A stretch of DNA of 31,088 bases from a virus (Duplodnaviria > Caudoviricetes). A model generated the notes under the pieces. It saw only the letters and a list, made by a program, of their open reading frames with translations. It did not search any database and was not told the origin of the DNA. Position numbers and translations under genes: made by a program. The stretch lies in IMG/VR virus record IMGVR_UViG_3300005512_000209, positions 1-31,088 of that record; one strand, 5' to 3'. Of this stretch, positions 14,161 to 26,960 are shown in pieces (the first letter of the stretch is position 1; every line of letters starts with the position of its first letter).

Positions 14161-15282
14161 TCAGGCCTCGCTCTGGATGTAGACGACGAGGTTGTCGCCG
14201 ACTTCGCGGTGGTTGAGCCCGCCGAACCCGGCGACCAGGAACATCTCGGACACCAGCGCCCGACGGTCCGGGGGAAGCGGGGTCGGGGTCATGGCCATGA
14301 TCATCTCGGCGGAGGTGTCGGCAGCGCCGGTCCCGCGACGGGTGAAGGCCATGACGTGGATGTTGGCGCCGCCCTTGTCGTTGAGCTCGCGGACGGGGAG
14401 GATGGTCTTGAGGTGGGGGTTCGCGCTGAGCATCCAGTCGAACAGGCTCTTGTCCGCGTTGTCGCCGTAGCGGCGGTTCTTGAGCTTGTTGTGGAGCTTG
14501 GTCGAGATCAGCAGGGTGTCCGGCTGGAACACGCCGCCGCTCTCGTTCTCGGCGTAGTTGGCCCACTGCCCGAAGTCCTCGACGATGTCGTCGGCGGCGG
14601 TCGCGGCGATGTAGCTCACATCCGAGAGAGCGGTGTCCACGTAGGGGTGGTTCAGCAGGCCGTACAGGTTGTACTCGCTGGCCCCGGACCACGTCCACTT
14701 GTTGATCAGCTCGTCGATCACCAGGCGGGAGGCGCGCATCTTGCGGGCCTGGACATCGAGCCCGGTCAGGCCAGCACGCAGGCCCTCGAGGAAGTCGATC
14801 TCCGCCTTGCTGGCGATGTACACGACGTTGGCGCGGGTGAACGCCTGGCCGATGCCGACGGCGGGGATGTTGGCCCCGGAGCCGCCGCGGTAGACCACGG
14901 CCTCACCCGTCGAGTAGGCGCGGGTCTGCTCGTAGAACAGGGAGCCGGGCTGGACCTCGGTGTTGACCGGGAAGGCCTTGGTGGCGTTCAGGGGCGCGGT
15001 CTTCTCCTCGAGCACACGCCGGAAGCGGTGCGTGAGGTCCCTGGGTTGGAACATGCCCAGGCCGGGGTCGAAGCCGTCGTTGCGCAGGTCGGAGGCGTAC
15101 CCGTCGAGGCGGTGACCCAGGATGGTCATGGCGCGCTCGTAGGTGGGCCAGTAGCCGTGACCGTCGTCGTCGGCGCGGCGCTGCAGGCCCATGCTCACCT
15201 CGGCGATCCCCTGGGAGATGTGGCCGAAGCTCTTCATGGGCTGGACGTGGGAACCGTCCACGAGAAGGAAGTTGGCAGGCAT
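14161..15282 (-). CDS. Major capsid protein, DUF2184-like (373 aa)
   Basis: YGLLNHP, PDTLL, FPV..EV.PG, GFGG motifs; size and position after protease and decoration genes. Confidence 0.9.
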   Translation of the reverse strand: MPANFLLVDGSHVQPMKSFGHISQGIAEVSMGLQRRADDDGHGYWPTYERAMTILGHRLDGYASDLRNDGFDPGLGMFQPRDLTHRFRRVLEEKTAPLNATKAFPVNTEVQPGSLFYEQTRAYSTGEAVVYRGGSGANIPAVGIGQAFTRANVVYIASKAEIDFLEGLRAGLTGLDVQARKMRASRLVIDELINKWTWSGASEYNLYGLLNHPYVDTALSDVSYIAATAADDIVEDFGQWANYAENESGGVFQPDTLLISTKLHNKLKNRRYGDNADKSLFDWMLSANPHLKTILPVRELNDKGGANIHVMAFTRRGTGAADTSAEMIMAMTPTPLPPDRRALVSEMFLVAGFGGLNHREVGDNLVVYIQSEA

Positions 15283-16471: not shown

Positions 16472-17680
16472 TCAGGCCTCCTGACGGTTGCTGGCGAGCC
16501 AGGGATCGGAGACGGGCTTGTCGGCGCCGTCACCGCGAGTGTGGTCGTCCGAGCCGGACCGGAAGCCGTCGTAGCGGGAGTCGCTGCGGCTCGAGTCCTT
16601 CTCGATGGTGGCGATGATGCCCTCGAGGTAGCCGAGGCCGCTGTCGGCGGTCACGCTGTCCACGCGGGTCTTGGCGATGGCGATGCGGAGGTCGTCGAGG
16701 GCGACGTCCTTGTGGTCCACGTTGACCTTGGCGGCGATGGCCTGGAGTCGGGACAACTCGGCGGCGTCCTTGCGCCCCTTCTCGGCCTCCATCATCTCGT
16801 CCATCTTGGCCTTCATGGCGTCGTACTTGCCTTGCAGCTCATCGAGCTTGGCCTGGCACGCGTCCTTGTCGGCCTTCATCTGCTCGAGTTCGGCAGCCTT
16901 GGCATCGGCGTCGGTCTTGGCCTTCTCGGCCTCGCTGTCGGCCTCGGCCTTGTCGTCGGCGTCGGCGCGGAGGGTCTTGGCGCGGGCGATGCCGGTCTCG
17001 AGGGCGTGTCCCTCGTCGTCCAGCCGCTCGACGCCGAGTGCGGTCAGAAGGGCCGCGAGCTTCGGATTCATGAGCTTCTCCTTGGGGGGAGGCTTGGGGG
17101 TGACGTACTGGCCCGCGGCGTCCGCGGAGTCTGCACGGAGGGAGACGGTTGGGCCGCCACGACCGCGCTCGACCAGGGCCAGGTGGTTGCACCTGCGCCC
17201 GATCTGGCGGGCGTCGTAGGCCCCGAAGAGAGGGTGGGTCCCGGGGGTCTCGTCGAGCTGGACCGCGTACCCGCAGGACACCTCGTCCGCGCCCTTGTCG
17301 AAGGCGTCGATGGCGTCGGCGCGGCGGAGGGCGACCTTGACTCGGACGAACGCGCCCTGGTTGTCTTCCTCGACCGTGGCCTCACCGTCAACGTCGCCCA
17401 CGCCGTCGGTCTTGACTGACTCGGTGGTGACGAACCCGGACTTGGGGTGCTCGAGGGTGACGGCGGAGCGGGGCAGGGTGCGCGCGGTGTCGAGGACGGC
17501 TTCACGGGTCACGAGTTCGCGCCTGACCCCGGTCCTGGTCTTGTACTCGAGGATGCCTTCGCGAGTCGCGATCCCCTCGGCCAGCACTACGCCATCCTCG
17601 CGCCGGAACGGAGCACGGAGCTGTTCGGCGCGATCGAATCGGCGGGGCGCGGCGTCGAAGTCAGGCAGGGGACACTCCAC
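16472..17680 (-). CDS. Head maturation protease/scaffold, DUF2213-like (402 aa)
   Basis: ATREGILEY, VTLEHP, EVSCGY, YDARQ, NHLALVERGRGG motifs, followed by a charged coiled-coil scaffold. GTG start lacks an SD. Confidence 0.9.
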   Translation of the reverse strand: MECPLPDFDAAPRRFDRAEQLRAPFRREDGVVLAEGIATREGILEYKTRTGVRRELVTREAVLDTARTLPRSAVTLEHPKSGFVTTESVKTDGVGDVDGEATVEEDNQGAFVRVKVALRRADAIDAFDKGADEVSCGYAVQLDETPGTHPLFGAYDARQIGRRCNHLALVERGRGGPTVSLRADSADAAGQYVTPKPPPKEKLMNPKLAALLTALGVERLDDEGHALETGIARAKTLRADADDKAEADSEAEKAKTDADAKAAELEQMKADKDACQAKLDELQGKYDAMKAKMDEMMEAEKGRKDAAELSRLQAIAAKVNVDHKDVALDDLRIAIAKTRVDSVTADSGLGYLEGIIATIEKDSSRSDSRYDGFRSGSDDHTRGDGADKPVSDPWLASNRQEA

Positions 17681-18348: not shown

Positions 18349-18660
18349 ATGGCCAGAATCAAGCCCCTGCGTATCCGCCTGTCCGATGACGAGCGGGCCG
18401 CTCTCGACGCCGAAGCCGAGCGTCACCACCTACCCACGGCGACGTGGGCGCGGATGGCGCTCATGTCCATGGTCGCCGTGTCGAGCAGGACGCCGATCCT
18501 GCTGCGCCCTGCGAGCACGGCGTACCTGACCGCGGCGGGGGAAGACCTCGACCGCGAGGCCGATCAGCTCGGAGTTCCGCCGCGGCAGCCTGGAGAGGCC
18601 GACTCCGATCTTCGGCAAAGGATCTGTGACAAGTACGCGGCTTGGCGGAGGGAGGGGTGA
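18349..18660 (+). CDS. Ribbon-helix-helix (CopG/MobC-like) regulator with C-terminal extension (103 aa)
   Basis: KPLRIRLSDDERAALDAEAERHHLPTATWARMAL fits the RHH strand-helix-helix pattern; strong SD and promoter. Confidence 0.75.
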   Translation: MARIKPLRIRLSDDERAALDAEAERHHLPTATWARMALMSMVAVSSRTPILLRPASTAYLTAAGEDLDREADQLGVPPRQPGEADSDLRQRICDKYAAWRREG

Positions 18661-19097
18661 TGCCTGACTTCCACGGCTACCCCCAGCACCCCGACGCCCA
18701 CCCAGAGAGGCCCTGGTGGCGGCTCGCAAACCCCTGGACCGATGGCGGTGTTTGGCGCAGGACGGATGGTCAGAGCACCGCGCGGTTCAACGTGCCCTCC
18801 ACCTATTGGGGCAGTCCAGAGCAATACCACACCCACATCATGGGGATAGCGCGCCAGCAGGATGATTATTTGGCCCGCATCGACACCACCAACCCCCTCC
18901 CTCCCCCGCACCCGCGCTGCGGTCAGGTGTGGATTTGCGACGACAACGAAGAACGCCTGGTTGTTGCTGTCCAGAACGGCTGTCCCGTGTTCGGTGGCCA
19001 TCCGCTCGGGTTTGCGCTGAACTGGCCCCCAGCAGGCGCCGTCCTCGTAGACGGCCACGGAGCACCCTGGGCTCCGATGGGAGGTTCCGATGCTTGA
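18660..19097 (+). CDS. Hypothetical protein, Trp/Pro-rich (145 aa)
   Basis: TGATG overlap; GGAGG SD. Confidence 0.7.
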   Translation: MPDFHGYPQHPDAHPERPWWRLANPWTDGGVWRRTDGQSTARFNVPSTYWGSPEQYHTHIMGIARQQDDYLARIDTTNPLPPPHPRCGQVWICDDNEERLVVAVQNGCPVFGGHPLGFALNWPPAGAVLVDGHGAPWAPMGGSDA

Positions 19098-19553
19098 CCA
19101 GCCCTGGCAAGACATCGCCCGCGAGTGGGTGGCCCCGTGGTCGTGGTGCGTCCTGTCAGACGGCCGTACGTCCGGCGTCAAGATGACAGGACGATTGGGA
19201 ACGCCAGGCGGCAAGGTCTACACCGTGCGCACGAAGCAGGGAACGAAGAACATCACCGCCAGCATGGCCTTTGTAGACCTCACCCACCCGCCCACAGCCC
19301 GCGAAGCCGTCGCCCGCCTGGCCCTGGTCCTCGGGGCCCCGGAGGAGGTGGTGGCGGAGGGGGTGGTGTTCCACTGCGACCGCAACACCGGGTGGTGGAA
19401 CCTCCTCGCTGGGCCATGGGAGACCATGGACGTGGGGACAATGCCCGGGTGGTGGGCCTACGATCTTGCGAGAGACATACCCGCCGACCAGCGCCCCCTC
19501 GCCATCGCCCTGGCCTGGCGCGAGGCGAGGATGGCGAAGGGCGCGAGGGATGA
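19090..19553 (+). CDS. Hypothetical protein (about 154 aa); 3' end uncertain because the frame stays open to 19995
   Basis: GGAGG SD, ATG 19090; protein-like to about WREAR; the expected coupled TGA (19551-53) is out of frame. Confidence 0.55.
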
Positions 19554-19735
19554 AGCAGGAAAGCCTCAACTACGACCTGGGCCTGATCCGTCCCTGGAAG
19601 AGTCGTCAGTGCGCACGATGCGGGGCAACTCCTGCTGTCGCCACGCTGAACATCGAAGCGGTCATCCACCACGGATCAAAACTGGAGTGCGTCGATCGCA
19701 AGGAATGCAAGCGTCGAGCACGGAGGACGCGATGA
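19550..19735 (+). CDS. Small Zn-finger-like protein (61 aa)
   Basis: ATG 19550; CARC...CVDRKEC; its TGA overlaps ATG 19732. Confidence 0.6.
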   Translation: MKQESLNYDLGLIRPWKSRQCARCGATPAVATLNIEAVIHHGSKLECVDRKECKRRARRTR

Positions 19736-19995
19736 AACTCACCCCCGAATCCATGCAGGCCATCCTCGACAAGCTCTGCAACGGGCCCGTTCACGAGGAC
19801 GTCCACGCTGTCGCTGGCGGCATCACGTCGAGGACCACCCATGCTCTCGGCGGTGGCCGCCTGCTCTCGATCTGCGACCCGGAGACGGGCGAGACCATCT
19901 GCAGGGCATCCGTCCAACTCGTCACCGCGCACGAGTTCCCAGCGTCGGGCGTGATGCGCGTCGAGCTGCTGGTGGTTGATGGGGGTGAGGGATGA
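19732..19995 (+). CDS. Hypothetical protein (87 aa, MKLTPESMQAILDKL...)
   Basis: GGAGG SD, ATGA overlap; in frame with the 19090 ORF. Confidence 0.65.
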   Translation: MKLTPESMQAILDKLCNGPVHEDVHAVAGGITSRTTHALGGGRLLSICDPETGETICRASVQLVTAHEFPASGVMRVELLVVDGGEG

Positions 19996-20303
19996 GGGTG
20001 GCCACTGTCTTTGCCCTTCTGTTTTCGTCAGCCTGCGCTCGACAGAACACCCAGACGGCGCAGGCCCCCGACCCTGGGCAGTCCACGCCCGTCTACGCCG
20101 ACGGGCTCGTGATGGTCGGGACCGAGCGAATCGGTGGCCACTTCGTGACCAGGTTCGTGGACTGCGACACGCGCGCCGTCTGCTACTTTTACCAGGGTGG
20201 GCTGTCTTGCGTCACCCAGCAGCCTCCGCCGGACACCATCTACCACTTGTCATCGCTTCGTGTTCGCGCGGTCGTCAATGACGTGTGCTGGGGGCCGGGA
20301 TGA
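19992..20303 (+). CDS. Putative lipoprotein (103 aa)
   Basis: MRVATVFALLFSSA|C signal/lipobox; ATGA overlaps at both ends. Confidence 0.72.
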   Translation: MRVATVFALLFSSACARQNTQTAQAPDPGQSTPVYADGLVMVGTERIGGHFVTRFVDCDTRAVCYFYQGGLSCVTQQPPPDTIYHLSSLRVRAVVNDVCWGPG

Positions 20304-20518
20304 ACCGCCAAGACCGTGGCTTCCTCGAGCGGCGCGATCTCGACTCGGCCGACTACGCCGAGTGCAAGGTCTGTTTCGCGACCGGACCCTACAACGGCGA
20401 GACGTGCTGCCCGTTGTGCGGTGGCGACCTGTGGGGGTTCGAGCCGCAGACACACGACTGGCGCTCGTATCGCTGGTGGGACGAGACCGGGAGAACCGGT
20501 GAACGGAGGACGCGATGA
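20300..20518 (+). CDS. Zn-ribbon-like protein (72 aa)
   Basis: CKVC...CPLC; ATGA overlaps. Confidence 0.7.
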   Translation: MNRQDRGFLERRDLDSADYAECKVCFATGPYNGETCCPLCGGDLWGFEPQTHDWRSYRWWDETGRTGERRTR

Positions 20519-20964
20519 GCCTCACCATCGACCGGAGCGGCGTCTACGTCTCCTGCTTCCTGTTCTCCATCCTCGCCGACAGCATGGGCGGGTGGTTCCG
20601 CTTCGGGCGCTGCGGGCCTGGGTTCGCCGTACACGACCGCAAGCGCAGCCCAGCGCCGTTCTCGGTTCGGGCGGGCGGGGTCAAAGAGTGGAGGGTAGGC
20701 AGGCTCGGGTTCCAGCGACTCGCCCGCGTCGAGCCCGAGGTCCCGTGGGCTGTCGATGGCAGCGGCTGGCCCGATCCCCTGTTCGGCAACGTGGACATCC
20801 AGGTGCTCTCGGTCGCGGCCAGGAACTCGGCGCAGACCATGGACAGGATGCTGGAGTTTGCCGAGGTGCACGGGGTCGAGTTCGCCGAGGACGTGTGCCC
20901 GGACTGCTCGCGGTGTGTGTTCGCGGATCTGTGCTCGAGGGCTGCTGTCGAGAGGGCGCGGTGA
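20515..20964 (+). CDS. Hypothetical protein with C-terminal Cys cluster (149 aa)
   Basis: GGAGG SD, ATGA overlap; CPDCSRC....LC. Confidence 0.65.
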   Translation: MSLTIDRSGVYVSCFLFSILADSMGGWFRFGRCGPGFAVHDRKRSPAPFSVRAGGVKEWRVGRLGFQRLARVEPEVPWAVDGSGWPDPLFGNVDIQVLSVAARNSAQTMDRMLEFAEVHGVEFAEDVCPDCSRCVFADLCSRAAVERAR

Positions 20965-21170
20965 TGGCCTTCCAGGTATTCCATGAGATCAGTCCGGGTT
21001 CGTGGGTTCACCGCCCGTGGTGGAAGCGAGCCATCAACACAGCCCTACGCGCTGTCCAGCACGGTCGTCCAAGGATGCTGCTGGTCTACAGCAAAACCGT
21101 CGCCGACGACAACGGGCGCCCGCTGTGGTGCTATGGCTACGGGTTTGGGTGGATCGGGATGAGATCATGA
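20964..21170 (+). CDS. Hypothetical protein (68 aa, MAFQVFHEISPG...)
   Basis: TGATG overlap, GAGG SD; stop overlaps the next ATG. Confidence 0.65.
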   Translation: MAFQVFHEISPGSWVHRPWWKRAINTALRAVQHGRPRMLLVYSKTVADDNGRPLWCYGYGFGWIGMRS

Positions 21171-21394
21171 CCCCTGAAGGCTGGCGCCGCGCGATCCTGA
21201 TGGCGGTCGCTAACCACGAGGCGGGCGATGACTCCATGCTCGACGGGTTGGCGATGGCGCTCCACGAATCCGACCGCGCCAAACAGCGGCTGCACGAAGC
21301 AGGATGTGGCTGCACGGGGGTCGGAATCCTCGACTCGGCCGCCACGGCTGCGGACATGATCGCGGACCTGCTGGGTGGGAGGGTTGGGCCATGA
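21167..21394 (+). CDS. Hypothetical protein (75 aa, MTPEGWRRAIL...)
   Basis: ATGA overlaps at both ends. Confidence 0.65.
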   Translation: MTPEGWRRAILMAVANHEAGDDSMLDGLAMALHESDRAKQRLHEAGCGCTGVGILDSAATAADMIADLLGGRVGP

Positions 21395-21654
21395 CCCACG
21401 CCGAGTGGAGAGACCTGCAAGAACTCCGCAAGCGAGCCGCGGAAGTTGCGCCCGGGCTGGTGGTCGAAAGCGTCAGGCACGAAGGTCTGGAGGCGCGCGT
21501 CGTGTTCAGCGGATGCGGGCTGGCCTACGCCTACAGCATCTCGATCATGGAATGGCACTTCTCGCCAGACGGGGCGATGAATGCGATTCTGCGCACCATT
21601 CTCGACCTGATGAGAAGAAGGGTCGATGGGCCTACAACCCCACGCTCGACCTGA
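21391..21654 (+). CDS. Hypothetical protein (87 aa, MTHAEWRDLQ...)
   Basis: GGAGG SD, ATGA overlap; 3' end overlaps the convergent gp7 gene by 23 nt. Confidence 0.65.
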   Translation: MTHAEWRDLQELRKRAAEVAPGLVVESVRHEGLEARVVFSGCGLAYAYSISIMEWHFSPDGAMNAILRTILDLMRRRVDGPTTPRST

Positions 21655-23362
21655 CGCCCTTGCGGATCTCCGAAATGCGTTTGGCGTTCCAGTCCGAGAA
21701 TTGGCTTTGATTCGGAATCTCCCCCCTCACCGTCGGGCTCGCCTGCATCCAGACCAGCTCGGCCTCCTTGCGGGCCTCGGCCTCGGCGAGCAGGCGTTGA
21801 CGTTCGGCGGCGCCCTTCTTGAGGACGGGGAGGGCGACGCATCGGCAGTTGTGCACTACCAGGCCCGCCGCCACATACCACCCGCTGTCCGTCTCCAGGT
21901 TGTAGACGTAGCCGGAGAACGGGACTTTGCGGACAGCGGACACCATGGCTGGGCGTAGAGCGCCAGGCTCACGGTTCAGCGCTACAGCGTTCAGTAGCGC
22001 CCCGTCGTCGTCGCTCACCGGGCGCGGCGGCCCTGGGTCCACCTTGGCGATCTCGACCACGCTCGGCGAGCTGTCGCCGTGGAACGCCCCTGGCGCGCAC
22101 GTGGCGGTCATGGCGTCGCCGTCAGCCCAGAACTCGGCGAACACATCGGCGATCTTGACCTTCCCGTTTCCTGTGGCGCGGAACACATCCTCACCCACCT
22201 CAACGAGATGCGCGGGGACCCATCCGCGCCGCGTGAGTATCGGATGGTTCGGTGTCGAACGAAGCGTTTCACCCGTGGCCGTGACGATCTCGGTCAGTTC
22301 ACCGCCGAACCAGCGCCGGTATCCTACTCGTGCGAGATGACAGAGCGACACGTCGGTATCACCTGGTAGGCACTGCCAAACCTCCCCCGGATGCCCCCTG
22401 CGCCCCCTGTTGTCAGCGATGGGCGGCTCGCTCCACTTGAAGATTTTGCCGTCCAGGTTCGCGTGCGCCTGCCTGACCCGGCTGTCACCCGACGTGCTCC
22501 ACTGGTACTCATCCACGCCCAGGTCTTCCATGCGCTGCTGGGCGATGCGGCTGGACAGGTTCGCGGTCTGGTCCCTGGCGATGAACGAGGCCTTGGACCA
22601 CGTCAGGTCGAAGCGCTTCTGGTACTCGCGGGCCAGGTCCAGGGTGGGTACGCCGCGCGCTACCGCCATCACGACGTCGTCCACCGTCCTCTCCAGGTCG
22701 TCGAGGCCCTGGTGCAGCAGGATGGATTCGATCTCCTTGTTCGCCGCGATCCACTCCCGGATGTCTCGCGCGGGCAGGTCGGTAGCGAGGGGCACGTTGT
22801 AGAGCTTGGACAACTCGCGGTCGGTGGCGTCGGTCGTGTCCTCGTCGATCTCGCGCCCGATCATGCCCAGGGCTTCCTCATCGCCCGCGATCAGGTCGTC
22901 GAGGATGGAGCGGACTACCTGGATGACCTCGGCAGCCGATGGGGAGTCGAGGCGGACGTTCGAGTGCATGCGCCCTGCCAGGACCTTCGCGGCCTTGGAG
23001 TCGATGCGCACGCCTTCTCTGTTGAGGGTGCCCCGGATCTCGCGAAACCTCTCGACCTCCTTTGCCTCGGCGCGGATGGACGGACCGGCGTAGCGCATGA
23101 CCAGGTCGTAGACGAGCTTCCACCGGCTCTGGAGCAGGTCGGCGTGCAGCTGCTCGAGGCGGTCGCTGTACCTCGGCACGCGCCCGGAGAACGGCCCCCC
23201 TGCCCTCTTGGCGTCCATGCGGGCTGCGGGCCAGAGCGAGTTGTCGCGGGCGAGCCTGCGCGCAGACCGGCGGCGGGCGAACTTGGCGGCCTCCTGCGGC
23301 GTCGCGTGGACGATGCGGGAGCGGCCCGAGACCCAGCCGGTGTCTACTTGGTAGAGAGGCAT
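21632..23362 (-). CDS. Head morphogenesis/minor capsid protein, SPP1 gp7/MuF family, intein-containing (576-aa precursor, about 401 aa spliced)
   Basis: FIARDQTA, YQWSTSGDSRVR..HA.LDGKIFKW, HPGEVWQ//CRCVALP motifs; GAGGA SD. Confidence 0.92.
   Translation of the reverse strand: MPLYQVDTGWVSGRSRIVHATPQEAAKFARRRSARRLARDNSLWPAARMDAKRAGGPFSGRVPRYSDRLEQLHADLLQSRWKLVYDLVMRYAGPSIRAEAKEVERFREIRGTLNREGVRIDSKAAKVLAGRMHSNVRLDSPSAAEVIQVVRSILDDLIAGDEEALGMIGREIDEDTTDATDRELSKLYNVPLATDLPARDIREWIAANKEIESILLHQGLDDLERTVDDVVMAVARGVPTLDLAREYQKRFDLTWSKASFIARDQTANLSSRIAQQRMEDLGVDEYQWSTSGDSRVRQAHANLDGKIFKWSEPPIADNRGRRGHPGEVWQCLPGDTDVSLCHLARVGYRRWFGGELTEIVTATGETLRSTPNHPILTRRGWVPAHLVEVGEDVFRATGNGKVKIADVFAEFWADGDAMTATCAPGAFHGDSSPSVVEIAKVDPGPPRPVSDDDGALLNAVALNREPGALRPAMVSAVRKVPFSGYVYNLETDSGWYVAAGLVVHNCRCVALPVLKKGAAERQRLLAEAEARKEAELVWMQASPTVRGEIPNQSQFSDWNAKRISEIRKGVRSSVGL
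21848..22372 (-). mobile_element. Mini-intein (175 aa, Hint domain, no homing endonuclease)
   Basis: Block A CLPGDT, block B LRSTPNHPILTRRGW, blocks F/G VYNLETDSGWYVAAGLVVHN followed by Cys+1; excision restores HPGEVWQCRC. Confidence 0.93.
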
Positions 23363-23550
23363 TGGTCCTCACCCGGCGGCCGGTACACCACCATATCCCC
23401 CGACGGGTGTAGCCAGATCAGCCGGGCCAGGGGCTCTCTCGACTCGCGGGGCAGGTCGGCCCACTGGACCCCGAGCGCGTCCACGGCCTCGAGGAACTCG
23501 CGGACGGGGGTCAGGTCCAGGACGAGGGCGGCGGGCTTGCGGTCACTCAC
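23344..23550 (-). CDS. Small hypothetical protein (68 aa)
   Basis: GTG overlaps the portal 3' end and the ORF fills the gap to gp7; no clear SD. Confidence 0.55.
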   Translation of the reverse strand: MSDRKPAALVLDLTPVREFLEAVDALGVQWADLPRESREPLARLIWLHPSGDMVVYRPPGEDQCLSTK

Positions 23551-25360
23551 GATTCGCCCCCACGATACCCTCGGCCCACGTCTTCGCGGTGTCTCCGCCC
23601 CAGCCCAGCCAGGCGACCAGGCCCGCGTCTTTCCACGGCTCGTCTTCGTGCTCGGGAGCGACGGTCTCGTTGCCCTCGTGGCGCGCGAACCAGGCGGCCA
23701 TCTCGATCACGTCCTGGCCCTTGACCGTGCCCCCTGCCAGTTGGCGAGCCCGACGCCATCCGGTCGCGGTCATGCCTTCGACGGCGCTTCCGTGCTTGTC
23801 TCGCCAGGCCAGCACCTTCTCGGCGTTGCCCTTGGCTCCGGCGGGGACCTTGTACTCCTTCGCGCGGAAGTCGTCGGGGTAGGCGTCGGAGCGGCCCGCC
23901 AACGCCTCCTCGACCATGCGTTGAGCGGCAGCCTCGGCCTCGGGGTCGCCTTGGGGCGCGGGTCGCTCGGGGATGTCCTCGACCGGCTGCAGGTCGATCT
24001 GGTAGCCGCCCTGCTGGCCGTAGCGCATCCGGCGGATCTCGTCGGGGGTCAGCACCCCGTCCAGGATCGCGGCGGCGTCGGCCTGGGTGTGGACCAGGCG
24101 GATGTCGGCGCGCTCGCGTTCGGACAGGTCGCCCAGCGGCGGGAACGACACACCCCACTCGTCGGGGATCGTGCCGATGGTGGAGTGGTACAGGACCGGG
24201 AGCAGCCGCTCGAGCTGGGGGCGGTAGCGGTCCTCCCACCAGTCCCCGACCGACTGATACCACAGCGCCTGCCAGCTGGACCCGTCGGTGTTGAGCCCGC
24301 CGGGGGCCTCGCCGAAGAGCAAGGTCATAGGGGCGCCGAGGACGAGGGCCAGCTCCATCTTCGCGTGGTCGCTGATGTCCCGGTAGCCGCTCGGGTTCGC
24401 GGCGATGCGCTGGAACTCCTCGCCTGGGGAGAGCAGGACGGCGTTGGCTACCGACTTCATCATGTTGAGGGTGCGGATGCGGCTGATCCACGATGCCGAC
24501 TCGTCACCGGATGCGCGAGGGGGTGCGACCTTGAACACGGCGATGGAGAGCTCTTGGGCCACCCGGGCGCCCGCGCTCCCGGTCTGCGACAGGTTGCGGC
24601 AGGCGTCCCAGATGGTCTGTCCCACCGCGTCCGCGCCCCACGCTGCGGAGTAGTCGGAGCCCGCGAAGGGCAGTTCGGACGGCGGCAGGTCGTCGCCGTA
24701 GAACCGGAGCAGGCGCGAGGCGTGGACGTTGTCGAGCTGCCACTTCTTGCCGTTGACGGTCGCCATGGCGCGACGGGGCTGGATGCTGTAGTGCGTCGGA
24801 GCGCCGAGGGTGCCTGTGGACAGGTCGGCGTTGTAGCGCAGGGGCCAGAACTCGCGGCGGTCGAAGATCTCGAGGCGGTGCAGGCGCTTGACCTTGGTCG
24901 GGTCCAGGGGCTCGGACAGGGGCGCGGGGTCGTCGGTGACCATCAGGACCATGCACTCGCCCAGGCCTCGGCCCCAGGTGTCGGCGCGGCGGAAGGTCGC
25001 GCGCACGTTCAGGGTCTTCATCTCGGCGTGCAGTGGATGCTCGCTCTTGGTGTCGTCGGTGATGATCCAGGGCTTCGTGGTCGCCCAGCTGGGATGGAGC
25101 TGGCAGATCCGGCGGTAGAGCCCACCACGGAGCAGGGCCACGAGCTCGTCGGTGGTCAGGTACTCGCGCTCGGTGTTCGGCCTCGCCTGCGCCCCGGAGT
25201 CGCGGTAGCCCCCGAGCCCGGACAGCGGGTTGCTCATCGCCGACCCGCTGTAGTTGGACTGGTTGCTGTAGCCGTCGGTCGATGACGAGTCGGTTCGGAG
25301 ATCGACGGGGGAAGGCGGGGCGCCTGCGATGGCGGTACGGATTCGGTCGCGTAGGGACAT
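23543..25360 (-). CDS. Portal protein, DUF1073-like, with an extra C-terminal domain (605 aa)
   Basis: AGGAGG SD, ATG 25360; VHASRLLRF.G, PMTLLFGEAPGGLN..G, FPPL..LSERERA, GVLTPDEIR motifs; follows terL. Confidence 0.9.
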   Translation of the reverse strand: MSLRDRIRTAIAGAPPSPVDLRTDSSSTDGYSNQSNYSGSAMSNPLSGLGGYRDSGAQARPNTEREYLTTDELVALLRGGLYRRICQLHPSWATTKPWIITDDTKSEHPLHAEMKTLNVRATFRRADTWGRGLGECMVLMVTDDPAPLSEPLDPTKVKRLHRLEIFDRREFWPLRYNADLSTGTLGAPTHYSIQPRRAMATVNGKKWQLDNVHASRLLRFYGDDLPPSELPFAGSDYSAAWGADAVGQTIWDACRNLSQTGSAGARVAQELSIAVFKVAPPRASGDESASWISRIRTLNMMKSVANAVLLSPGEEFQRIAANPSGYRDISDHAKMELALVLGAPMTLLFGEAPGGLNTDGSSWQALWYQSVGDWWEDRYRPQLERLLPVLYHSTIGTIPDEWGVSFPPLGDLSERERADIRLVHTQADAAAILDGVLTPDEIRRMRYGQQGGYQIDLQPVEDIPERPAPQGDPEAEAAAQRMVEEALAGRSDAYPDDFRAKEYKVPAGAKGNAEKVLAWRDKHGSAVEGMTATGWRRARQLAGGTVKGQDVIEMAAWFARHEGNETVAPEHEDEPWKDAGLVAWLGWGGDTAKTWAEGIVGANRE

Positions 25361-25394: not shown

Positions 25395-26960
25395 CTAACC
25401 CAGCATGTCGAACCAGGATCGGTGAGACGCCTGACCCTGTTCCTCGAGGGTCCAGCGCATGTTGATCTGGCTGGTGGCGTCCATGTCGTCATCGTTGGCG
25501 CCCAAGGGGAACGCGACGATGTTCTCGAGCCAGTCGCCGACCCAGGGGGCGACGGACGGATCGGGCGGGATGATGGCCCCGGACTCACCGGCGCGCTCCA
25601 CGAAGCGGGCGCGGGCTCCCTTGCTCTTGTCGTCGCCGGGGGTGTCCTTGGACGGGTGGAAGCGCACGAGCGCGACGCCCATGTAGGCGGGTTCCCTGGC
25701 GTCCAGGTAGTTCGTGCCGTTCGCCGTGTCCTCGACCAAGCACCCGCCCTGGGTGCGGACGATGAACCGGCACCACTTCGCGATCATGGCGTCCATGGCC
25801 TGGAAGTACTCGATGGACCCCATACGGGCGTAGACCCGGTCGAGCGGGTAGCGCTTGCCGTCCTTCTTGGCCCAGCACTGGATGGCGTTGAAGTCAGCAA
25901 GCGCAGTGCCCTTCTTCGCAGCGTCGGCAGAGATCCAGACCTCGTCCGCGGTGGCGGCGATGTCCTCGGGTTGGCAGTGGTAGCGCTCTCGGAACCACTC
26001 GCGCTTGATCATGCCGCCCTCGAGGGGGGTTGGGCGCTGCTGGTAGAGGCTGGCCCAGACCCGCTCGCCGACGCCTGCCTTGATGCGCTCGAGGTGCTCG
26101 AGGGGGTAGCGCTCCGGGTGCAAGGCCTCGCCCTCGCGGCGGAACTCCTCGTCCTTCTCAGCGATGGCGGGGTAGCTGACGACCTCCCAGCCCTCGTCGG
26201 GCTGCCGGAGCACGAGCCCGGTCAGGTCCTCGTGGTGCCACCTGGTCGCCATGATGATGATTCCGCCGCCGGGGGCCAGGCGGGTGTAGGCGACGGACTG
26301 ATACCAGGACCACAGGCGGCGGCGCTCGGTTGGCGACTCGGCCGCGGCCATATCCTTGATTGGGTCATCGATGCACAGGACGTGAGCTCCGCGCCCGGTG
26401 AGAGGCCCGCCGACACCGACGGCCTTGTACCCGCCGCCCCCGGGCACCTTCCAGTTGTTGACCCTGTCCACGTCCGTCCGCTTGTAGTCGGCGTAATAGG
26501 TCTTCTCGGGCTTCTTGGGGCGCAGGTGCGGAAACACGTCCAAGGCGTCGCCTCGGGCCACTTCGCGGGCGTCGCGGCTGTTGTCGTCGGCGAGTTCTTG
26601 GCCGTAGGACGCGCAGACGAACTCGTGGTCAGGGTAGAGGGCCAGGTGCCAGTCCGGGTAGCGCCGGCTGACGATGTGGGTCTTGCCGTGCCGGGGCGGC
26701 ATGGCGATCACGAGCCGTGGGGACTCACCGGCCTCGACCTGGCGTGAGAAGCGGGACAGGCGGCGGCACAGGTCGCGGTGAACCCATCCGGCTTGGTAGT
26801 TGGGCGGACTGGTGTACTGCACGAACCGGAGCAGGCTGTCGGGGTGGTCGGTGCGCTCGGCCACGGTCAGGAGGTGACGACGCCACCGCTCCTCCTCCCG
26901 CGCCTCACGCTCGCGCCTGTACCGGAGCAGGGGATCGTCGCTGGTGAGGGCTTGGCGCAT
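25395..26960 (-). CDS. terL: Terminase large subunit (521 aa)
   Basis: Walker A MPPRHGKT, GGPLTGRGA, Walker B LCIDDP, TRWHHEDL, LYQQRP, nuclease FP.G.NDDDMDA. Confidence 0.96.
   Translation of the reverse strand: MRQALTSDDPLLRYRREREAREEERWRRHLLTVAERTDHPDSLLRFVQYTSPPNYQAGWVHRDLCRRLSRFSRQVEAGESPRLVIAMPPRHGKTHIVSRRYPDWHLALYPDHEFVCASYGQELADDNSRDAREVARGDALDVFPHLRPKKPEKTYYADYKRTDVDRVNNWKVPGGGGYKAVGVGGPLTGRGAHVLCIDDPIKDMAAAESPTERRRLWSWYQSVAYTRLAPGGGIIIMATRWHHEDLTGLVLRQPDEGWEVVSYPAIAEKDEEFRREGEALHPERYPLEHLERIKAGVGERVWASLYQQRPTPLEGGMIKREWFRERYHCQPEDIAATADEVWISADAAKKGTALADFNAIQCWAKKDGKRYPLDRVYARMGSIEYFQAMDAMIAKWCRFIVRTQGGCLVEDTANGTNYLDAREPAYMGVALVRFHPSKDTPGDDKSKGARARFVERAGESGAIIPPDPSVAPWVGDWLENIVAFPLGANDDDMDATSQINMRWTLEEQGQASHRSWFDMLG

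Follow-up and report, generated by a model that had tools for sequence, protein, structure and literature searches.

A Trp-rich helical domain exchanged among head proteins of tailed viruses, a predicted protease-released cargo of a DUF1073 portal

Introduction

The 31,088-nucleotide fragment of a GC-rich (68%) myovirus examined here (IMG/VR record IMGVR_UViG_3300005512_000209, positions 1 to 31,088; the whole stretch is referred to as the window) encodes a portal protein whose core is followed by a linker, a candidate protease site and a 113-aa Trp-rich domain. The locus thus raises the question of why a portal carries such a domain, referred to below as the cargo domain. The original prediction, made from the DNA of the window, was that the domain is delivered into the capsid by the portal, freed by the maturation protease and possibly ejected with the DNA as an anti-defence or DNA-binding effector. 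The evidence bearing on each of these steps was examined by comparison of the portal, its head module and the relatives of the domain. In the motifs given below, an arrow marks the predicted or possible scissile bond.

The portal gene and its head module

The minus-strand genes are arranged in the order terminase, portal, a 68-aa ORF, MuF/gpF, a plus-strand insert, DUF2213 protease/scaffold, a likely decoration protein, major capsid protein, and neck and contractile tail genes (Table 1). The portal scored 178.1 bits against PF06381 (Pfam cut-off 33.8), which places it in this family, and its location between the terminase and the MuF/protease/capsid genes fits a DUF1073 portal; its relatives with solved structures are the portals of Pam3, T1, E217 and Pa193. 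The protease, which precedes the capsid gene, belongs to PF09979 (74.3 bits, cut-off 22) and could be aligned with T1 gp50, E217 gp23 and Pam3 gp5.

Table 1 Features of the window bearing on the portal and its cargo domain.
Feature	Coordinates	Strand	Basis and remarks
Terminase large subunit, directly upstream of portal	25395..26960	-	Pfam, PHROG
Portal gene, DUF1073 / Phage_portal_3, with C-terminal cargo	23543..25360	-	605 aa, translated from 23546-25360; Pfam/PHROG matches
N-terminal R22-T-D24↓S motif, predicted trimming site	25286..25297	-	Motif; AlphaFold model, in low-confidence segment aa 13-41
Portal core, PF06381 match aa 76-429	24074..25135	-	E 2.7e-52
Portal linker aa 448-489, coil, then predicted helix 473-490	23894..24019	-	Sequence and AlphaFold model
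R490-S491-D492↓A493, predicted maturation-protease cut site	23882..23893	-	Motif statistics, relatives; aa 490-495 are low-pLDDT coil
Cargo domain aa 493-605, 113 aa, Trp-rich, helical	23546..23884	-	Sequence, profile, model
MuF/gpF head morphogenesis protein, three N-terminal RxD[AS] motifs and an intein-like insert	21632..23362	-	Pfam, motif counts
Intein-like insert in the MuF/gpF gene, bounded by C...HN↓C	21848-22372	-	Weak PF14890 match, E 1.4e-4, under cut-off
Block of small ORFs interrupting the head module between gpF and protease	18349-21958	+	Three scanned, without Pfam match
DUF2213 head-maturation protease/scaffold, likely cutter, 9 RxD[ASG] sites	16472..17680	-	Pfam, PHROG, shuffles; start codon uncertain
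Major capsid protein, RxD-G motifs at aa 58 and 67, just before PHROG match start (aa 76)	14161..15282	-	Pfam, PHROG, motif counts

The layout originally described for the portal was found entire in the translation: the core ends near aa 447, the last residue of GVLTPDEIRRMRY, a P/E/A-rich linker follows, and R-S-D↓A at aa 490-493 leads into the 113-aa Trp-rich domain. When the entire portal was modelled with AlphaFold, aa 490-495 came out as a coil of low confidence between the linker helix and the cargo domain. Near the other end of the protein, all of the close portals (46 of 46) have RxD inside their first 60 aa. That the cargo domain is a gene of its own was considered and is unlikely, because the reading frame runs on without a break and, by eye, no obvious ribosome-binding site precedes the in-frame starts at aa 482 and 487. 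The base composition of the domain (GC 0.70 vs 0.69 and GC3 0.86 vs 0.93) gave no sign of a recent import.

A large family of the cargo domain

No match to the cargo domain was found in Pfam and nothing near a cut-off in NCBIfam, while the sole PHROG match was phrog_2859, of unknown function; 53 of 53 aligned domain members match part of this unannotated profile, of whose 740 positions the domain makes up about 100. Single-sequence scans of viral contigs returned one locus each for the cargo domain and the portal core, and a tighter alignment (A2) was needed. With a profile of the domain, 4,944 clusters at 50% identity were matched at E<=0.001, 3,553 of them at E<=1e-10, and 6,379 proteins matched among 7,995 long candidates that were scored. 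In these proteins the domain is mostly joined to head proteins.

Across 53 sequences, with identity down to about 30%, seven positions are invariant (F66, R68, H69, V90, W95, G96 and G97, domain numbering) and 14 nearly so, among them W27, T39, R45, Q48, W92 and W103. The domain core holds 7 Trp in the window copy and 5.7 on average in the family. Its net charge ranges from -6 to +13 across members (-2 in the window copy), and this speaks against a protein that coats DNA in a generic way.

The model built from the 53-sequence alignment is helical with a short two-stranded element and has a mean pLDDT of 95.3. Foldseek gave no match to it in the PDB at E<=0.001, VIA-align gave a best Z of 4.3 over 48,161 chains, without a known relative, and the best hit of the domain profile against PDB sequences had E 0.46; the solved anti-defence proteins, nucleotide sponges included, thus gave no match at E<=0.001 and no Z above 4.3. 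The modelled domain is therefore without a known structural relative, and a new fold is not thereby proven. In BFVD 56 matches were obtained at E<=0.001, and the named ones among the matches listed (50) are tailed-virus proteins with names uninformative as to function; one match is a fusion named Dps.

Three identities were considered for the domain. A 2H/Acb1 domain is contradicted by the absence of any Pfam match, PF13563, PF02834 and PF23474 included, by a lone conserved H69 followed by E/R and then K/V/G in place of two H-x-[ST] motifs, and by the nearly all-helical model. A likeness to DUF5824, noticed by eye in G-M-[ST]-x-x-G-W, was unsupported (hhalign probability 0.8%, E 0.072, with shallow alignments; Atlas score 0.84). 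For the label 'putative DNA-binding protein' given to the copy in PaBG, no basis was found in the accessible text of the PaBG paper. A literature search, with most subscription journals outside its scope, returned no description of the cargo domain or of the RxD rule, and the family appears undescribed.

Exchange of the domain among head proteins

The search with the domain alone and the tally of its fusion partners, which had been proposed as a check, covered 58 and 81 scanned carriers and the precomputed families of 120 long matches listed. The domain was found joined to four portal families (DUF1073, Mu-type, lambda-type and HK97-type), to five protease families (XkdF, DUF2213, Mu gpI, ClpP and annotated prohead proteases), to capsid proteins and to MuF, and also standing alone. 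Of the 120 long matches, 12 have it at the N-terminus, 92 at an internal position and 16 at the C-terminus. Neighbours within the same protein included Acb1/2H, ART-PolyVal, InPase, ddrB-ParB, GNAT, topoisomerase I, ChaB, Hva1_TUDOR and DUF5824, and many carriers were without any Pfam family. The two marks of a polyvalent effector, fusion to a head protein and mobility among architectures with known polyvalent domains, were thus both found. Where the domain stands alone, its gene may belong to a head module (S-CBS4 gp19, Vibrio 1.123 gp44), frequently with gpF on one side and the protease on the other, or it may lie outside such modules (PaBG, Vibrio 150E35-1, SCTP-2).

Related portals and carriers had further peculiarities. 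A recurring unannotated module that begins with L-N-G-A-Q lies between core and cargo in many related portals, namely in the linkers of P0146, P0147, P0156, P0161, P0175, P0176, P0189 and P0134. Odd architectures (P0198, P0300, P0137, P0208, P0286) comprised a pair of copies in tandem with a K-A site between them, and fusions to TMEM65, topoisomerase I, an ATP-dependent ligase and a cytidylyltransferase. Gene 27 of Vibrio phage K389 (L184:4001-4777) is labelled 'DNA methyltransferase', yet it starts with the cargo domain, has no Pfam match at 1e-3, and on visual inspection is similar to the domain+XkdF protease of Limnohabitans DC31.

The portals themselves were then compared. Of 59 matches to the portal core, the window's own included, 30 carry a 2H phosphodiesterase only, 15 carry both domains, two the cargo domain only and 12 neither; the cargo domain is therefore present in 17 of the 59, and the contrary possibility, that it is constant in this portal family, does not hold in the near clade. 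Portals P0157 and P0158 have 665 of 685 residues in common (97%), and they are set apart by one 116-aa insert, the cargo domain, placed between two D-A sites. The three nearest portals (64-69% identity over the first 450 aa) could be aligned through the linker, and from the aligned RxD↓A onwards they carry a 2H domain. The cargo domain is a swappable cassette and not a constant part of the portal.

The predicted cut site

Taken alone, RxD is not above chance in the 605-aa portal (4 seen, 3.5 expected). RxD[ASG] was found 16 times in five head proteins of the window vs 3.86 in shuffles, with 0 of 5000 shuffles as high, and 7 times vs 5.66 in 11 non-head proteins of the window (p=0.33); the protease/scaffold holds 9 of the 16 (9 vs 1.0 in shuffles). 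The case for a site at D492 rests on this enrichment in head proteins and on the comparison of relatives, and not on the single RxD.

In 28 bacterial-type DUF1073 hosts, xD[ASG] lies <=18 aa upstream of the domain in every case (28/28, background 0.28) and RxD[ASG] at the same distance in 17 (17/28, background 0.04), and RxD was found downstream in 17 of the 18 with sequence past the domain. The motif upstream of the domain was a different one with other partners, namely K[AS] in 11 and RxD[ASG] in one of 25 XkdF carriers, and E[AS] in eight and RxD in none of 10 lambda-type or probable lambda-type portals. Out of sample and by eye, xD[ASG] was present upstream in 12/18 PF06381 hosts and RxD in 3/18, while 13 XkdF hosts (three with an N-terminal domain dropped) had K[AS] in 10/13 and RxD[ASG] in 0/13. 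The motif class found before the domain was also the one enriched (p<=0.01) in the phage's own protease/scaffold at 9 of 11 loci, in a test whose patterns were picked after the sequences were viewed; the shuffle test gave no significant protease/scaffold motif for L033 and HATV-3. All these motif counts overstate independence, because the carrier sequences are kin. The head proteins of HATV-3 (L004) and Vibrio 1.122 (L170) look rich in an Asn-based motif (p=0.059 for HATV-3, not significant), hinting at an Asn-directed protease.

In these comparisons the flanking motif tracks the protease type of the phage, whether Asp, Lys or Glu. Since the Asp result is weaker out of sample, the rule for this portal family appears in general to be an Asp with a small residue after it, Arg at -2 being specific to the clade of the window. 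The original prediction is thus upheld in part: the domain is optional and the Asp site is kept ahead of it in the near clade, but strict RxD is a feature of that clade only, and under other proteases the site is Lys- or Glu-based. Cleavage at D492↓A493 is probable on the sequence evidence.

The proteases of T1 (gp50) and E217 (gp23) are likewise DUF2213 proteases. According to the accessible text, the T1 capsid protein was modelled from residue 27 (PMC11945409), directly after the KxD of K24-Q25-D26↓A27 in its sequence, and the E217 capsid model begins at 66, where the authors allow cleavage or disorder (PMC10329688); the E217 sequence before this start reads A-M-D64↓S65. Asp-specific cleavage is claimed in neither cryo-EM paper, as far as their accessible text goes, and the missing capsid ends may be due to simple disorder. 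The first residues of stand-alone relatives of the domain are similar to the N-terminus predicted at A493. In SCTP-2 gp458-460 (L171:3270-5529), the stand-alone domain gene gp459 and both of its neighbours begin with a common propeptide-like stretch whose last residues are L-[LF]-E and which, from the T4 consensus, we take to resemble T4-type capsid-targeting peptides.

Predicted delivery and function

Fusion to the portal dodecamer would place about 12 copies of the domain at the inner side of the crown, an arrangement that can be predicted with high confidence from the geometry of the E217 and T1 structures. Inside the prohead, the DUF2213 protease would probably trim the portal N-terminus at D24 and free the domain after Asp492, leaving A493 as its N-terminus. 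The freed domain would enter the host along with the DNA, and we regard this ejection as slightly favoured; T4 IPI, about the size of the 12-kDa domain, is reported in the accessible text to pass the portal folded (PMC9026906). Once injected, it would act as an early counter-defence factor. This is the leading function because the slot-mates of the domain are predicted or known counter-defence enzymes, and Acb1/2H, ART-PolyVal, InPase, ddrB-ParB and GNAT are treated as packaged effectors by Iyer et al. in the text available (PMC5512222, PMC9503650).

The small number of copies, about 12, and the conservation of Arg, His and Trp residues would suit an enzyme, or an inhibitor directed at a host protein of low copy number, better than a bulk sponge or a DNA coat. 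Counter-defence on a nucleotide or nucleic-acid substrate, with T39/R45/Q48/R68/H69/W92/W95 as predicted participants, is a tentative assignment, and so is the combination of ejection with an anti-defence function. The complete chain, in which a swappable cassette is cut in the prohead, injected and used for early counter-defence, is likewise put forward tentatively, at somewhat less than an even chance. Against it stand the 6/18 out-of-sample PF06381 hosts without an upstream xD[ASG], and the fact that the stand-alone copies of PaBG, Vibrio 150E35-1 and SCTP-2 are encoded away from the head modules. Also against it, the designation '148' of the PaBG copy is absent from the accessible text of the PaBG paper, which has a 14-protein virion list, and a literature search for virion proteomics of carrier phages found none.

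A generic anti-defence role also does not explain the aquatic bias of the isolates. The host or source was aquatic or hypersaline in 36/37 domain phage records, the remaining one being an uncultured record with habitat unstated, and in 34/34 of a second record set; the genera tallied for 100 domain records were aquatic or hypersaline among the matches listed. A query with the DUF2213 protease returned 401 records that included Klebsiella (65), Rhizobium (18), Yersinia (16) and Escherichia (10), none of which occurs in the domain set among the matches listed. Because of this bias, two other explanations, protection within the capsid and late action, stay alive.

According to the first, the freed domain remains in the head and shields the packaged DNA in water against UV, oxidation or salt. 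The habitat counts and the lack of common DUF2213-bearing genera speak for it, as do the BFVD fusion named Dps, the average of 5.7 Trp in the core, and the origin of PaBG, which infects P. aeruginosa and yet, according to the accessible part of its description, came from the water of Lake Baikal. Twelve copies are, however, too few to coat a genome of >31 kb, and the net charge is as variable as described above. Among 185,579 prokaryotic genomes searched with narrow patterns, the domain is encoded in 9/104 pattern-matching stretches, all in MAGs, and contigs labelled Promethearchaeota and Altiarchaeales, possibly mis-binned, carry it. Both are lineages of dark habitats, which also counts against protection, and we consider this explanation unlikely.

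Marginally less likely is that the domain, co-translated with portal or protease, acts late in the producing cell, where it blunts the defences that these proteins trigger, its packaging being incidental. Portal and prohead protease, the two commonest carriers, are reported defence triggers (PMC13728456, accessible text), such an alternative was raised in the available text of Iyer et al. 2022 for head-linked ARTs (PMC9503650), and stand-alone copies of the domain exist. Flanks matched to the maturation protease nevertheless imply processing in the prohead, and the propeptide-like starts of SCTP-2 gp459 and its neighbours also speak against late action.

It is more doubtful still that the RSD motif is left uncut and the domain stays attached at the crown as an optional assembly or structural accessory, binding scaffold, the capsid interior or DNA. 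This would be consistent with nearly all partners being head proteins, with stand-alone genes often placed between gpF and protease, and with a lone RxD not above chance in the portal, but 42/59 related portals are without the domain, it takes N-terminal, internal and C-terminal positions in unrelated head proteins (12/92/16 of 120), and its flanking motif varies with the protease type. A near-neutral hitch-hiking cassette, recombining at repeated cut-site codons and degraded during maturation, would account for the clean gain or loss between the D-A sites of near-identical portals, but is very improbable in view of the 7 invariant and 14 near-invariant positions and of the thousands of clusters that come from viruses of bacteria and archaea.

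Release in the prohead followed by injection and early counter-defence is thus the preferred reading. In a wider sense, the domain could represent a large undescribed family (~4,900 clusters) of virion-delivered proteins in aquatic bacterial and archaeal tailed viruses, a cassette moving among portal, protease, capsid and MuF proteins, refitted with the local cut site and endowed with a new activity, either as an injected enzyme or inhibitor directed at a common aquatic defence or as a DNA protector in the capsid; this broader proposal is speculative, and we hold it with less assurance than the chain above. An abundant unnamed phage family with a confident, unmatched fold now has a testable life cycle, in which fusion would load it, the protease would cut it at a residue that can be predicted, and delivery would follow. 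Isolated carriers are S-CBS1, S-CBS4, HATV-3, HGTV-1 and Roseobacter CRP phages, so proteomics and deletion work are feasible; HATV-3 has the domain on its portal, S-CBS1 in a capsid/protease fusion, and S-CBS4 as a stand-alone protein together with a DUF2213 RxD module. Since the domain is swapped for an Acb1-like 2H domain at one and the same residue, the tail of the portal can be searched as a slot for new counter-defence proteins, and the Asp rule of DUF2213 proteases suggests a route for loading chosen proteins into phage heads.

Comparison with known systems

Accessory domains on the portal, MuF or capsid-processing peptidase are predicted, in the accessible text of Iyer et al. 2017 (PMC5512222) and 2022 (PMC9503650), to be packaged and injected. 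The cargo domain resembles these polyvalent proteins in its co-occurrence with their 2H, InPase, ART-PolyVal and ddrB-ParB domains. It differs in that release by embedded metallopeptidases is proposed in the available text of those studies, whereas in the present case the sequences on either side of the domain agree with the head-maturation protease of the respective phage; furthermore, it has no Pfam family, in a comparison made without the external LPD1-40 lists.

The closest parallels are the portal-Acb1 of Pam3 (PDB 8HDS) and the gp19 portal-InPase of E217 and Pa193 (8FVH, 9B41), which have in common with the window the portal family, the DUF2213 protease family and the slot of the cargo, in line with the statement in the original prediction that some DUF1073 portals carry accessory C-terminal domains. 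In both cases the extra domain is C-terminal (E217 portal InPase, L182:4125-6422; Pam3 portal Acb1, L168:1898-3763). The InPase-bearing residues 529-765 of the E217/Pa193 portal are described in the accessible text as unresolved in cryo-EM, the C-terminal barrel facing the head interior, and in the Pam3 portal T-D↓A stands just ahead of Acb1. The cargo of the window is distinguished from these by being all-helical and unrelated to 2H or InPase, and by R-x-D↓A in place of A-x-D↓S or T-D↓A.

The internal proteins IPI* and Alt of T4, processed by gp21, are comparable as small dispensable head cargo that is cut and ejected, and T4 IPI inhibits a type IV restriction enzyme according to the text available (PMC9026906). 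No likeness in sequence or fold was found between the cargo domain and the T4 internal proteins. In T4, as the same accessible text has it, an N-terminal capsid-targeting peptide is cut after Glu and about 360 copies are present (PMC9026906), whereas here a fusion to the 12-mer portal and a cut after Asp are predicted; the window copy, a C-terminal portal fusion, is without a T4-type N-terminal propeptide, and among its relatives propeptide-like starts are confined to some of the stand-alone copies. As kinds, effectors fused to portals and internal proteins released by proteases are both known.
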